Of a DNA stretch of 64,000 nucleotides, positions 1,261 through 62,829 are shown one piece after another. The translations under genes were made by a program, and so were the position numbers. The notes under the pieces were generated by a model. The model did no database searches. It was not told the DNA's origin and was given only the letters and a program-made list of their open reading frames with translations. The DNA is taken from positions 33 to 64,032 of the forward strand of contig CANRBL010000005.1 in NCBI GenBank assembly GCA_947628835.1, in the 5' to 3' direction. This DNA is from an uncultured Clostridia bacterium. Its GTDB lineage: Bacteria > Bacillota > Clostridia > TANB77 > CAG-508. Position 1 is the stretch's first letter. The number at the start of each line of letters is the position of its first letter.

Positions 1261-1515
1261 GTTACTATATAATGGTTTCTGTGCAATATACTCTAAAAAG
1301 CATTGAAATATAAGATTTTCATTACATTCCTCGGCTCATTACAAAGTTTAAGAAATTCTAACTTATTTTATGGCACCCTTTCACTCAACGCGAACTATTT
1401 CCATAAAATTGCGTAGAATTTCTAAAGCTTTTCCAATCACATTCGTCATTCCATTCAAATTCTTATATTTCAATGCTTTTAGAAATTTATCATTTTAAAA
1501 CCATTAACCTGTAAC
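1261..1515 (+). mobile_element. MITE-like palindromic repeat, copy A (variant left end)
   Basis: The core and right end are near-identical to the copies at 9014, 16689 and 62575. The right TIR reads aaaaccattaacctgtaac. The left end is of the variant type shared with 40249. Confidence 0.8.
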
Positions 1516-1551
1516 ATTTGTTAAACTATATAAGGTTACAATCAGCCTATC

Positions 1552-2814
1552 TTAAAAATTTTCTAAGTACATTATATAATTTGTAAATAAATCTGAAAAA
1601 TAGAAATAAATATCCTTTTTTTCGATAGTATCAGTATTATAAATATTTAAAGTAAAAATAACATTATTATTAATAATAAAATCCAAAGTACCTATTATGG
1701 AATCTTTATAAAGAGGAGCAGAAAAAGTATAATCAGTATTTATATTAATAGAAATGTCATCTTTATAAATGGAATTGACAGGAAATTTATTATAAGGAAT
1801 ATCGGATAATTGTACATTAACGGTATTAGACTTACCTTTTATAATTTGAAATTTATATTGATTACTATTTTTCCAATTTTCAAATTCATTTTTTATAATA
1901 TTTTCAATATCAATCATTTCAAAATTACTAAAAACATATTCTATTAAATTTATACTATCCCTTGTTCTATCTTTTTTCGTATCAGCACCAAGAACAACGC
2001 AAATAATATCCAGATTATTCCTTTTAGTAGCAGTCACAAGACATCTATTAGCACCATTTGTAAACCCAGTTTTCACGCCATAAACGCCATTTAAATATCC
2101 AAGAAGCTCATTTGTATTATTTAAAGACTTATAGTTACCATTAATACAAACAGAATAATTTTTTGTTGAAACAATTTTAGCAAAAATAGCATTATTTAAG
2201 GCATAGTTTGATAACAGAGCCAATTCATAAGCAGTAGTATAATGATTATCATTATCGAGACCATGAGGAGTAACAAAATGAGTATTATTTAAGCAAAGAT
2301 TTTCAGCCTTTTTATTCATCAATTCTGCAAATCCATTCAAATCATTACCAGCATATTCAGCCAAAGCCACAGCAGCGTCATTGCCAGAACATAACAATAA
2401 ACCATAAAGTAAATCATTTACAGTTATTTTGTCACCAGTGTGTAAACCTAGTCTTGAACCACCTGTACCTGCAGCTTTTTTTGAAATTTCTACTACATCT
2501 GTCAAGTTACAATTTTCCAAAATAATTATTGCTGTCATTATTTTTGTAGTAGAAGCCATCTTTCTTTTAGTATTTTCATTTTTCCCATATAAAATTGTAT
2601 TTGTATTTCTATCTATAACAACACATGCACGAGAATTTAATTGAGGAATTTTAGAATTACTTTGTAAATTAGTAGAACTAGCAAGAATTTCAGCAGATAC
2701 ATCAACTACTTCTTCATTATCTAAATCATCAGCAAAAGATATGACAGTAAAATTCATAATCATAATAAAAACTATTAGTAATATATATAATTTTCTTTTC
2801 ACAATAAAACTCAT
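1552..2814 (-). CDS. D-alanyl-D-alanine carboxypeptidase (serine-type, PBP5 family)
   Basis: 420-aa ORF with an N-terminal signal/TM. Motifs SxxK (ASTTKIMT), SxN (SGND) and KTG (KTGFT). Confidence 0.9.
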   Translation of the reverse strand: MSFIVKRKLYILLIVFIMIMNFTVISFADDLDNEEVVDVSAEILASSTNLQSNSKIPQLNSRACVVIDRNTNTILYGKNENTKRKMASTTKIMTAIIILENCNLTDVVEISKKAAGTGGSRLGLHTGDKITVNDLLYGLLLCSGNDAAVALAEYAGNDLNGFAELMNKKAENLCLNNTHFVTPHGLDNDNHYTTAYELALLSNYALNNAIFAKIVSTKNYSVCINGNYKSLNNTNELLGYLNGVYGVKTGFTNGANRCLVTATKRNNLDIICVVLGADTKKDRTRDSINLIEYVFSNFEMIDIENIIKNEFENWKNSNQYKFQIIKGKSNTVNVQLSDIPYNKFPVNSIYKDDISININTDYTFSAPLYKDSIIGTLDFIINNNVIFTLNIYNTDTIEKKDIYFYFSDLFTNYIMYLENF

Positions 2815-2945
2815 TCCTTTCTTGCTTTACTCAAAGGCACACATAAAAAAAGAAAGAATACTTTCTTTAAAACTGTACCTCTAATAAATAATATAAAAAA
2901 ATATAATTTTTATGAAAGAATATATAAATTATTTTTATAAACTAC

Positions 2946-2974
2946 TTGAATTTTTATATATAAAATTATATAAT
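2946..2974 (+). promoter_or_regulatory. Sigma-A-type promoter of the SRP RNA
   Basis: TTGAAT (2946-2951), 17-nt spacer, TATAAT (2969-2974), about 7 nt upstream of the RNA 5' stem. Confidence 0.6.
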
Positions 2975-2980
2975 AGCAGA

Positions 2981-59994: not shown

Positions 59995-61122
59995 TTGAAA
60001 GAAGAACAAATGAATGAAGATGGAACTCAAGAAAAAAAGAAAGCAAAAAATAAGCATGCCAAAAAGAAAAAAAGGAAAATTTTTAGAAAAATATTACTTT
60101 TTTTACTTATAATATTTTTATTAACAGGTGGAGTATTAGCATATAAAACATATAAAAACGGTTGGGGATTAGAAGGATTTTTAGAAACAATAGTAGGAAA
60201 TAATGAAACCACTAAAGAAAATTTAGAGGAATTTAGAGTATTAGTATTAGGAGTAAGTACAGATATTTCAGCAAAACTTACAGATACAATAATAGTAGCC
60301 TCATATAATCCCAATACACAAAAAGCAACATTACTTTCAATACCAAGAGATACATATGTTGGAACAAACAAGAAAAAAGCAACAGCTTCAAATAAAATAA
60401 ATGCATTATATCAATCAGATATAAGTAAAACACTTGAAGCAGTAAATGATTTAACAGGGTTAAATATAAAAAATTATGTTGTGGTAGATACAACTGCATT
60501 AATTGAGTTAGTTGATGCAATAGGAGGAGTAGAATTTGAAGTTCCAATCAATATGAAATATGATGATAAATCACAAGACTTGCATATAAACTTAAAGAAA
60601 GGATTACAACATATAGATGGAAACAAAGCAGAGCAATTGTTAAGATTTAGAAAAAATAATAATGGTACTTCATATCCAGAGGAATATGGAGGAGACGATA
60701 TAGGAAGAATGAGAACACAAAGAGAATTTATAACAGCTGTTGTGCAACAAACAATACAAGCTAAAAATATTTTAAAATTAGGTAGTTTATTAGATATCGC
60801 AAATAAATATGTAGAAACAAATGTAGATATTAATGTTGCAAAAAAATATTTACCATATATTATTGACTTAGATATACAAAACTTACAAAATAATGTTTTA
60901 CCAGGTGTATCAGATAAAATTAACGGAATATGGTTTTACATAAATGATGAGGAAGAAACAGAAAAATTAATAAATGAATTATACAATAATCAAAACACAA
61001 GTAGTGCAGAGAATAATGAGACTAATACAAACGATGCAAATAGTATAAATAATACAAACACAATTGATGAAAAAAGTGAAAATGTAACAAATACAACTCA
61101 AAAGAATACTTCAAAAAAATAA
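59995..61122 (+). CDS. LytR-CpsA-Psr (LCP) family cell-wall glycopolymer transferase
   Basis: N-terminal TM and an LCP core (DTIIVASYNP…LLSIPRDTYV, …RFRKNN). TTG start after RBS gggag. Confidence 0.85.
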   Translation: MKEEQMNEDGTQEKKKAKNKHAKKKKRKIFRKILLFLLIIFLLTGGVLAYKTYKNGWGLEGFLETIVGNNETTKENLEEFRVLVLGVSTDISAKLTDTIIVASYNPNTQKATLLSIPRDTYVGTNKKKATASNKINALYQSDISKTLEAVNDLTGLNIKNYVVVDTTALIELVDAIGGVEFEVPINMKYDDKSQDLHINLKKGLQHIDGNKAEQLLRFRKNNNGTSYPEEYGGDDIGRMRTQREFITAVVQQTIQAKNILKLGSLLDIANKYVETNVDINVAKKYLPYIIDLDIQNLQNNVLPGVSDKINGIWFYINDEEETEKLINELYNNQNTSSAENNETNTNDANSINNTNTIDEKSENVTNTTQKNTSKK

Positions 61123-61156
61123 ATAGGAAAGATATTTTATCTTTCCTATAAATAAC

Positions 61157-62431
61157 TTATTTTCGTTTTGTTCTACGATTTCTTTTCCTACTATTTTTTT
61201 TATTCTTATTTCTATTATTATCCAATAGTCTTGATAGAAGATATAAAATTATTAATAAAAAAAGAAACCAAAAAATTTTAAGCCCAATATTAGATTTTAT
61301 AACATCATGAGAAGCAACTAAATTTTCTTTGTATTCAATTCCATCTATTATATATTTAACATATCCTACAACACTTCCACTAGAAATAGGAGCTGATAAA
61401 TTATCATATACTGTTATTTCTGGAGAAATATTATCTAAATTTTCTGAATTTTCCACTAATGCAGTAATATCATTTTCTAACAAAATGTCTAAATTTTTTG
61501 TATCATTAGTTCCATTAGATATCTTTGTTTCAGTAATTTTACTATCTTTACTAACAATATTTTTTAGTGAATAATTATTATAAGCATACTCATACAAAGT
61601 TTTAGAATCCTGAGCTCTTGGAGATAAACCATTAGATGTTCCATTAGCACCTAGAATTACACATATAAGTTCTAAGCCATCTTTTAAACTGGCAGAAATT
61701 AAGCAATGTTTAGAACCACTTGTATATCCAGTTTTTATACCAATAGCATATTCATAATAATTAGAAGAATTATTTTTACTATTAATTAATAATTCATTAG
61801 TATTTGTATACGTTCTTTTATCATATTTATTAGTTGCTGGAATTGTGCAACTTGTTTTAGATACAATATTTCTAAAAGTTTCATTTTTCATACAATATTG
61901 TGTAATTAGTGCTAAATCATAGGCTGTGGAATAATGTTCTTCATCAAAAATACCACTAGGATTTGTAAAATGTGTATTGGTACAACCAATTTCAATTGCT
62001 TTTGTGTTCATCATAGTTGAAAAACTAGAAACAGAGCCTCCAATGTGTTCAGCAAGTACAAAACCAGCTTCATTAGCAGAATGAATTAATAGAACATTTA
62101 ATAATTGCTCTATTGTTAATTCTTCACCAACTTGAAGAGAAGCTGTAGAATATCCAGATGGAACAGAAGAAACAGCATTATAACTTACTGTGGCAATATC
62201 ACTTAATTCACAATTTTCTATAGCCAAAATTGCAGTTAATATTTTAGTAGTACTTGCAGGATATTTTTTTTCAGACATATTTTTATCATATAAAACACGA
62301 CCAGAAGATGCGTCAATTAAAACTGCTGCATCTGAACTAAGTGTAATATTTTCGTTATCAGCAAATGAAAATGTACTCGAAATTGATAAAATTAATAATG
62401 TTATTATAAGTATAATTTTCTTACATTTCAT
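61157..62431 (-). CDS. D-alanyl-D-alanine carboxypeptidase (second PBP5-family paralog)
   Basis: Signal peptide, SxxK (ASTTKILT), SxN (SAN), KTG (KTGYT), and a C-terminal TM with a basic tail. Confidence 0.9.
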   Translation of the reverse strand: MKCKKIILIITLLILSISSTFSFADNENITLSSDAAVLIDASSGRVLYDKNMSEKKYPASTTKILTAILAIENCELSDIATVSYNAVSSVPSGYSTASLQVGEELTIEQLLNVLLIHSANEAGFVLAEHIGGSVSSFSTMMNTKAIEIGCTNTHFTNPSGIFDEEHYSTAYDLALITQYCMKNETFRNIVSKTSCTIPATNKYDKRTYTNTNELLINSKNNSSNYYEYAIGIKTGYTSGSKHCLISASLKDGLELICVILGANGTSNGLSPRAQDSKTLYEYAYNNYSLKNIVSKDSKITETKISNGTNDTKNLDILLENDITALVENSENLDNISPEITVYDNLSAPISSGSVVGYVKYIIDGIEYKENLVASHDVIKSNIGLKIFWFLFLLIILYLLSRLLDNNRNKNKKNSRKRNRRTKRK

Positions 62432-62574
62432 AAAACAAATTCTTCCTTTCTATATAGCGTATTTATTAAGTTTTATTACTTTCAAATTATTTCCATTGAT
62501 ATAATTTTACAATAGATACTATACATTAAAATTTTATAAAATTCAATAGTTATTTTTAATTCAAAGGAAAAAAG

Positions 62575-62829
62575 GTTACAGGTTAATGGTTTTAAAAGGA
62601 TAAATTTCTAAAATCATTGAAATATAAGATTTTCACTACATTCCTCGGCTCATTACAAAGCTTAAGAAATTCTAACTTATTTTATGGCACCCTTTCACTC
62701 AACGTGAACTATTTCCATAAAATTGCGTAGAATTTCTAAAGCTTTTCCAATCACATTCGTCATTCCATTCAAATTCTTATATTTCAATGCTTTTAAAACT
62801 ATTTTTATATAAAACCATTAACTTGTAAC
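62575..62829 (+). mobile_element. MITE-like palindromic repeat, copy F
   Basis: Full-length copy. The 8-bp duplication gaaaaaag flanks both ends (62567-62574 and 62830-62837). Confidence 0.9.

Follow-up and report, generated by a model that had tools for sequence, protein, structure and literature searches.

MITEs at a fixed distance from promoters, and their IS66-family parent, in an uncultured gut Clostridia bacterium

A 64-kb stretch of DNA from an uncultured Clostridia bacterium (64,000 nucleotides, hereafter the window) carries a dense family of palindromic repeats of about 255 bp, which raises the question of what these repeats are, what moved them, and what determines where they lie. 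The window is part of contig C5 of a source assembly of 1.66 Mb in 82 contigs with ~25% G+C. In our labels, G000 is the source genome, C-numbers are its contigs and L-numbers are loci in other genomes. We found that the repeats are MITEs (miniature inverted-repeat transposable elements), i.e. gene-less, non-autonomous transposons, that many of them end 28-29 nt from the -35 box of a host promoter, and that their terminal inverted repeats (TIRs) match those of an insertion sequence (IS) of the IS66 family. It is quite probable, in our judgment, that the MITEs were moved in trans by an IS66 transposase that targets a fixed distance from promoters.

MITE copies and the promoters beside them

The preliminary description of the window had listed four full copies, one internally deleted copy and a solo right end, and we recovered all six (four of 255 bp, one of 129 bp and one truncated right end). 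These elements and the host promoters next to them are arranged as follows.

1204-1232, minus strand: host promoter TTGACA-17-TATTAT, directed at the tRNA genes at 989-1157 (minus strand); copy 1 has its left end 28 nt from the start of the -35 box
1261-1515, plus strand: MITE copy 1, 255 bp, a mosaic without target duplication
9014-9268, plus strand: MITE copy 2, 255 bp, with TGCTTTTT at 9006-9013 and 9269-9276
9297-9325, plus strand: host promoter TTGCAA-17-TATAAT of a Mur-ligase gene (9359-10735); its -35 box starts 28 nt past the end of copy 2
16689-16943, plus strand: MITE copy 3, 255 bp, with ATTTTTAA at 16681-16688 and 16944-16951
16972-17000, plus strand: host promoter TTGACG-17-TATAAT; its -35 box starts 28 nt past copy 3
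40249-40377, no strand assigned: internally deleted MITE derivative, 129 bp, made of a third-type left end and an inverted left-type right end
59841-59904, plus strand: solo truncated MITE right end
59933-59961, plus strand: host promoter TTGCTA-17-TATACT of a LytR_cpsA_psr gene (59995-61122); its -35 box starts 28 nt past the solo end
62518-62546, minus strand: host promoter TTGAAT-17-TATAGT of an S11 peptidase gene (61157-62431, minus strand); copy 4 has its left end 28 nt from the start of the -35 box
62575-62829, plus strand: MITE copy 4, 255 bp, with GAAAAAAG at 62567-62574 and 62830-62837

Five of the six window elements thus lie 28 nt from a -35 box. Next to the sixth, the 129-bp derivative, stands an older residual end (..AACTTGTAAC, 40394-40403), 27 nt from a TTGACA at 40431-40436. 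The four full copies can be aligned across their 255 bp with a mean column identity of 90%, and copies 2-4 bear exact 8-bp target duplications, as first described; at the local base composition an exact 8-mer match is expected by chance with a probability of ~1e-4. Copy 1 combines a third-type left end (GTTACTATATAATGGTTTCTGTGCAATATA...) with the core and an inverted left-type end at its right, and copy 2 is placed between the terminator of a small gene for a protein like the small acid-soluble spore proteins (SASP) and the Mur-ligase promoter.

When the copies were counted across the whole genome, as had been proposed, blastn combined with a TIR scan revealed ~79 element groups over the 1.66 Mb, several lying at the ends of contigs. 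Among them are 17 full 255-bp copies that are 94-100% identical to copy 2. Of these 17, 11 are flanked by exact 8-bp duplications and two by duplications with a single mismatch; exact ones also flank three 54-bp, one 70-bp and one 128-bp derivative. Elements range from 54 to 355 bp, with recurrent derivatives of 54 bp (the two TIRs only), 70, 128 and 195 bp. The TIR had been read correctly as GTTACARGTTAATGGTTTT; GTTACAGGTTAATGGTTTT is present at both ends of the MITE, and 131 such ends were found in the source genome with up to 4 mismatches. No transposase open reading frame (ORF) is present in the MITE, in which loop-length variation breaks the frame; a small ORF in the core (MAPFH...) was rejected because this variation shifts its frame between genomes. 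Because the elements have TIRs, copy-specific 8-bp duplications, no ORF and many dispersed, near-identical copies, they are MITEs, as had been proposed. The intergenic placement noted in the window also holds genome-wide, in that none of 32 paired elements interrupts a reading frame (counted as a frame open for at least 50 codons on both sides).

The outward flank of each of the 131 ends was scored at each offset for TTGACA-16..18-TATAAT with at least 9/12 matches. The -35 box started at offset 28 for 34 ends and at offset 29 for 18 ends, whereas the remaining offsets between 0 and 74 had 1.56 ends on average and at most 8; at offsets 27 and 30 there were 2 and 4 ends. In all, 50 of the 131 ends have a promoter-like site at 28-29 nt (binomial p ~5e-46 versus the local background), compared with 0.7% of random genome positions, and a differently built, relaxed criterion gave 33 and 14 ends at 28 and 29 nt versus 0.6. 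Counted per element, 42-43 of the 79 lie at this distance, most of the misses having one scorable end only, and about three quarters of the elements with both ends readable are at a promoter. The earlier statement that several copies sit before promoters was therefore right but understated, since the spacing is fixed. Minor peaks at 17-18 and 38-39 nt, which might have indicated helical phasing, were mostly low-complexity matches on inspection and were dropped.

These promoters are consensus predictions, backed by conservation at one locus (see below) and by the genes downstream: a co-oriented ribosome-binding site and ORF follow 37 of 49 targets (median distance 120 nt) versus 27 of 78 other ends. 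The 50 targets also share phased A-tracts at -5 to -8 and -15 to -17 before the -35 box and a TG extended -10, features that were not selected for. The duplicated 8-mer and the next 20 nt contain almost no sequence information across copies, which argues that the promoters belong to the host and that no motif in the duplicated DNA serves as the target. Within the window, full copies do have the same orientation, as described, but this does not extend to the genome, where 18 left-type versus 19 right-type ends face a promoter. Some elements lie between divergent promoters, 28 nt from each.

The IS66-family parent and the proposed mechanism

We confirmed that the window encodes no transposase. 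The earlier guess of an IS66-like or ISL3-like source proved right for IS66, and the search for an autonomous IS with the same TIRs gave only a remnant in the source genome but intact copies, of 509-515 aa, in genomes assembled from metagenomes of related gut Clostridia. The remnant, at C36:17173-18444, is 1272 bp long, with GTTACTAGTTAATGGTT at both ends and broken reading frames. It matches positions 2-93 and 255-385 of NF033517, the catalytic middle being missing, and the C-terminal end of PF03050 at 22.9 bits (cut-off 23.1). TIR pairs, PF03050, NF033517 and tblastx detected no other IS66 match in the source assembly.

The intact relatives have the TIR GTTAC[TA][AG]GATAATGGTTTT. In a rabbit-gut metagenome-assembled genome (MAG; L063) the IS is 1910 bp with a single 509-aa ORF, and L064 is a 1916-bp contig that consists of exactly the IS, encoding 511 aa. 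The transposase has 511 aa in L062 (goat) and 535 aa in L061 (chicken), and the 1923-bp IS of L060/L045 is frameshifted. Exact 8-bp duplications at IS copies are TAATTATT (L063), CATCAATG (L061), ATAAAAAT and CTTTTGCT. Over NF033517 positions 2-386, L063 scores 178.1 bits, just under the cut-off of 180, and L064 scores 181.2, just over it; the intact relatives match PF03050 at 68 bits, well above its cut-off. Judged by these domain matches and by its ends, the parent is a single-ORF IS66-family insertion sequence. MITE and IS have in common just the ~19-20-bp TIR, at 16-18 of 19 positions (remnant and intact copies), so the MITE is not a simple deletion product of the IS.

At E <=1e-60, this transposase is represented in a large protein collection by at least 289 clusters, nearly all of them intact (509-517 aa) and on contigs of 1.9-2.5 kb. 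One cluster, at 77% identity, is named 'IS66 family transposase [Faecalibacillus intestinalis]'. A class-wide search for close relatives of the IS returned only ~30%-identical elements. A protein of 515 aa, 92-94% identical to the C36 remnant, is encoded on a 1961-bp contig with a coverage of 15.7; the sample that yielded it also yielded a contig of a near-identical strain, with a coverage of 4.1. An intact IS copy could therefore be absent from the MAG only through non-binning of short repeat contigs. The MITEs of the source genome were presumably moved by an IS copy that is now degraded or unassembled.

The IS has the same spacing as the MITEs. L063 and L061 lie at 29 nt from a promoter, and L065, L067 and both ends of the C36 remnant at 28 nt. 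In the F. intestinalis-type IS lineage a promoter stands at 28-29 nt in 6 of 12 distinct junction flanks (three of them by eye at relaxed stringency), and in the P0107 lineage in 4 of 9; this amounts to about one promoter per insertion in both of these further lineages, with one insertion upstream of rpsT. TIR ends in four other species of the genus are at 28-29 nt in 8 of 22 cases, with one more at 27 nt.

The locus of copy 2, between the SASP-like and Mur-ligase genes, could be compared across genomes. Four other species without the MITE keep TTGCAA-17-TATAAT there. In a fifth, G220, a related but separate MITE stands 29 nt from the same -35 box and has a different duplication, AATT(T/C)TAA.

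Taken together, these data suggest the following mechanism. A single-ORF IS66 DDE transposase would mobilise the MITEs in trans through the shared ~19-bp TIR, making staggered cuts of 8 bp. Its target would be picked by promoter architecture and not by sequence, so that the duplicated 8-mer would come to lie ~21-28 (or 22-29) nt upstream of a sigma-A-type -35 hexamer, at the upstream edge of an A-tract (UP-like) region, and the element end 28-29 nt from the -35 box in either orientation. Such integration would leave genes and core promoters intact, which would explain why the copies are all intergenic and many persist. The spacing may be set by the transposase at the moment of integration, for example if it touches RNA polymerase bound to the promoter, or bent DNA upstream of it.

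Several points weigh against this proposal. No transposition event was observed, the source assembly contains no intact transposase, and 2-3 of the 19 positions of the MITE TIR are not those of the intact IS TIRs. Exact-protein look-ups of the flanking genes found no empty allele, every near-identical strain carrying the insertions, and the four MITE-less syntenic sites are too diverged to display a single 8-mer. IS66 elements of ~30% identity (ends GTTAC or GTAAC, 8-bp duplications) do not have a consistent 28-nt spacing, with few copies seen. About a quarter of the complete elements have no recognisable promoter at 28-29 nt, and selection after insertion could sharpen the pattern.

Selection could also be given the whole of the work. 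Under that explanation, insertion is near-random in A/T-rich intergenic DNA, and the spacing emerges later because copies at 28-29 nt are harmless or helpful, for example with the TIR as an upstream activating or insulating sequence. Survivors that are all intergenic are expected from selection alone too, either end can face the promoter while the TIR is common to both ends, and the quarter of complete elements away from promoters would be no surprise. The peak, however, is 1-2 nt wide and has no shoulder (2 and 4 ends at the adjoining offsets versus 34 and 18), and the same spacing is found for a 1.9-kb IS and for 54-355-bp derivatives, beside unrelated genes and in several species. Selection would need insertions to have been lost in vast numbers, and neutral copies ought then to be common at other offsets between genes. 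We therefore consider selection acting alone an unlikely source of the spacing, and prefer targeting by the transposase.

The palindrome, its inner module and related repeats

The MITE had been described as one long palindrome around a central loop. Its outer and inner stems stood up, but between them lies a conserved internal loop in which ~27 nt on each side stay unpaired (the left side includes ..ACATTCCTCGGCT.., the right side ..CACATTCGTCATT..). The inner stem ends in an apical loop that is asymmetric and contains a small hairpin. The folding energy of the element as single-stranded DNA is -39.8 kcal/mol (z = -9.2). Of 175 sampled genomes of the bacterial family, 52 have the inner module of ~165 nt, in many cases with no TIR that can be aligned. 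When 22 genomes were aligned, compensatory double changes appeared at 29 of 49 stem pairs, including variants of the small apical hairpin (CAC/GTG, CAT/ATG, CGT/ACG). G-U intermediates are almost absent, the count of changes on one side only being 0-1 at most pairs.

The strong fold, the wide occurrence of the module and its compensatory changes, which reach into the apical hairpin, are what one would see if the fold of a structured RNA, made by a non-coding RNA gene or acting as a cis-regulatory element, were conserved, and the preliminary description had named conserved structured RNAs as the case that would speak against insertion. This was not borne out: the 8-bp duplications differ from copy to copy, the TIR is common to an IS66 element, copies stand upstream of promoters in either orientation, and Rfam gave no match at the gathering score or at E up to 1. 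Moreover, the compensated pairs hardly ever have a G-U intermediate, which is what a DNA palindrome, with both strands read alike, would lead one to expect. An RNA gene in place of transposons is thus highly improbable. The near-absence of G-U intermediates and of any Rfam match fits a palindrome kept at the DNA level and not a strand-specific RNA, perhaps maintained through a process such as template switching in quasi-palindromes. Outward or internal promoters in the MITE amounted to just weak 9-of-12 matches in the core, and a sigma-54-like TGGCAC there was rejected by inspection because no TTGC partner stands at the proper spacing.

At the site of copy 2, a near-identical strain (locus L114, sample ERZ27249647) has a 195-bp variant in place of the 255-bp form within the same TGCTTTTT duplication; the internal structure thus changes in place without transposition. 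Four long variants (~345-355 bp, with an extra module of ~91-100 bp) are at G000:C1:39329-39684, C6:17045-17389, C2:72504-72821 and C12:12330-12648. The extra module consists of two hairpins (GTTCTAGACAATTGCGTGCAATTGTC...TTATGGCAAAGCCATA...) and is bracketed by a 9-10-bp direct repeat, TTTTTCCAA; because of this bracketing it is either a nested insertion or part of an ancestral form, deletions in which gave rise to the 255-bp and 195-bp forms. The breaks of several contigs fall within the extra module. In other genomes of the family, inner-module copies at L073, L075, L076, L084 and L085 have perfectly palindromic outer arms of up to 38 bp, which are wholly different from copy to copy and show no recognisable GTTAC ends.

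A second palindromic family, B, has ~40-45 copies in the source genome (85 detected ends; for example G000:C1:16906-16982, C6:26774-26850 and C33:8378-8460) and none in the window. Its apical core, TTTTATGGCACCCTTCCAC..GTGAACTCTTTCCATAAAA, is common to the MITE, and its arms differ. Relative to its two outer flanks, which are unlike, the asymmetric core of family B can point either way, as though the middle were able to invert. The true ends of the family lie ~47 nt further out (...GTTTCCTATTATATAAAA) than first assigned; its use as a negative control for targeting was therefore invalid, the ends used having fallen short by that length.

Two further segments were considered as carriers of an autonomous element and rejected. 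C25:9792-11634, from a full copy to a right-end fragment, contains two small ORFs for membrane or secreted proteins and a gene resembling that of transfer-messenger RNA (tmRNA), with no transposase. The TIR-like pair around a 402-aa ORF at C13:21363-22789 is a chance pairing in which only the left 76 bp are MITE. The probable tmRNA gene (C25:11000-11634, minus strand), known only by its 3' end, TGGTGGAGGTGAGGAGAGTCGAACTCC, directly adjoins the MITE right-end fragment, which includes part of the long-variant module.

In the window itself, the gene upstream of copy 2 (8669-8950) encodes a 57-aa protein that seems to be of the small acid-soluble spore type and has an identical sequence in several samples of metagenomes; the T-run of the gene's terminator is the target duplication of copy 2. 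At 5921-5960, between two convergent genes, two TIR-like ends abut 'outside-out' (..AAAACATTAACTTGTAGC TAA TTACAAGTTAATGTTTTT..) and form a hairpin with an 18-bp stem and A and T runs. This looks like a bidirectional terminator made of element ends, or like the remnant of two adjacent insertions.

Implications and comparison with known systems

A wider reading can be offered tentatively and only as a whole, and we would put its chance somewhat below even. An IS66 clade that is widespread in gut Firmicutes, including the cultured F. intestinalis, may have independently evolved promoter-guided integration. It would recognise either the architecture of promoters or RNA polymerase bound to them, and would insert one to two helical turns farther upstream than do the Mutator-like TnGBS and ISLre2 elements compared below. 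Its MITEs would set a conserved hairpin module before ~40-60 promoters per genome, maybe insulating or tuning them, and the module may be functional DNA itself; the last point is suggested by its conservation across a bacterial family and by its presence in MITE families with different ends.

A transposon limits its harm mainly through the choice of target. If the IS66 transposase does target promoters, the use of the strategy of the Mutator-like elements by an unrelated family, IS66, at another fixed distance would point to convergent evolution. What a transposase reads at a promoter could then be studied in a second system, independent of the first. Because it is represented in a protein named for a cultured gut bacterium, it could be tested at the bench, and a transposase that lands at a fixed site upstream of promoters without breaking genes could become a genetic tool. 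For annotation, the proposal explains a dense repeat family in small-genome uncultured gut Clostridia, in which MITE copies would mark real promoters at single-base resolution.

The parent resembles other IS66 elements in its DDE_Tnp_IS66 transposase of ~510 aa (NF033517, PF03050), its 8-bp duplications and its ~20-bp TIRs beginning GT.A. Canonical IS66 has tnpA-tnpB-tnpC, whereas the IS described here is a single ORF in 1.9 kb without TnpA or TnpB accessory ORFs, an architecture that we take to fit the ISBst12-like group of the family in the ISfinder grouping. Classical IS66 ends, as described in ISfinder, begin GTAAGCG; those of the present IS begin GTTAC. A further difference is the fixed promoter distance, which is absent from the distant IS66 members sampled. 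Since these relatives show no consistent spacing, targeting at 28-29 nt may be specific to this clade. The literature searched held no report of promoter targeting by IS66 or ISBst12 elements, and the only published promoter-targeting bacterial transposons found in it were TnGBS/ISLre2 and the ISKra4 group.

Among palindromic repeats, the REP and BIME sequences (repetitive extragenic palindromes and their mosaic arrays) moved by RAYT transposases are ~35-nt palindromes with a GTAG head and no target duplication. The elements described here differ in having 8-bp duplications and 19-bp TIRs. They are closer to the bacterial MITEs Correia/CREE of Neisseria, RUP of Streptococcus and MITEPsy1 (PMC3189936), being likewise short, ORF-less, bounded by TIRs, hairpin-forming, multi-copy and intergenic, with ends in common with an IS that presumably supplies the transposase in trans. 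They differ from these in their motif-free 8-bp duplications, their targeting by promoter distance and their modular build, in which end modules can be exchanged and the inner module also occurs in a second family whose ends are different.

In behavior, the nearest systems are the TnGBS integrative and conjugative elements, ISLre2 and the ISKra4 group, which have Mutator-like (p-MULT) transposases and insert 13-17 nt from a sigma-A -35 box (Guerillot et al. 2014, PMC3942029); those with near-perfect inverted repeats insert in both orientations (PMC3942029). Mobilisation of the present MITEs by such an ISLre2-, TnGBS- or ISKra4-type transposase would account for a fixed distance upstream of sigma-A promoters, for duplications of 8-9 bp and for insertion in both orientations with near-perfect repeats, as in the ISKra4 group and ISLbu1 (PMC3942029), but we give it very little credence, as the elements with ends matching GTTACAGGTTAATGG encode IS66-family proteins (NF033517, PF03050), the spacing is 28-29 and not 13-17 nt, and the source genome has no match to the ISLre2-type model NF033529, for which control genomes were equally silent. 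Mobilisation by an IS66 transposase remains our preferred explanation. The two systems are alike in their fixed distance upstream of the -35 box, in leaving genes intact and in inserting in both orientations; here the transposase is of the IS66 type, the distance is 28-29 nt, and the targeting is inherited by a large MITE family. Because transposase family and spacing both differ, the present system is not a member of the TnGBS/ISLre2/ISKra4 group: it behaves like that group but belongs to the IS66 family and to MITEs.

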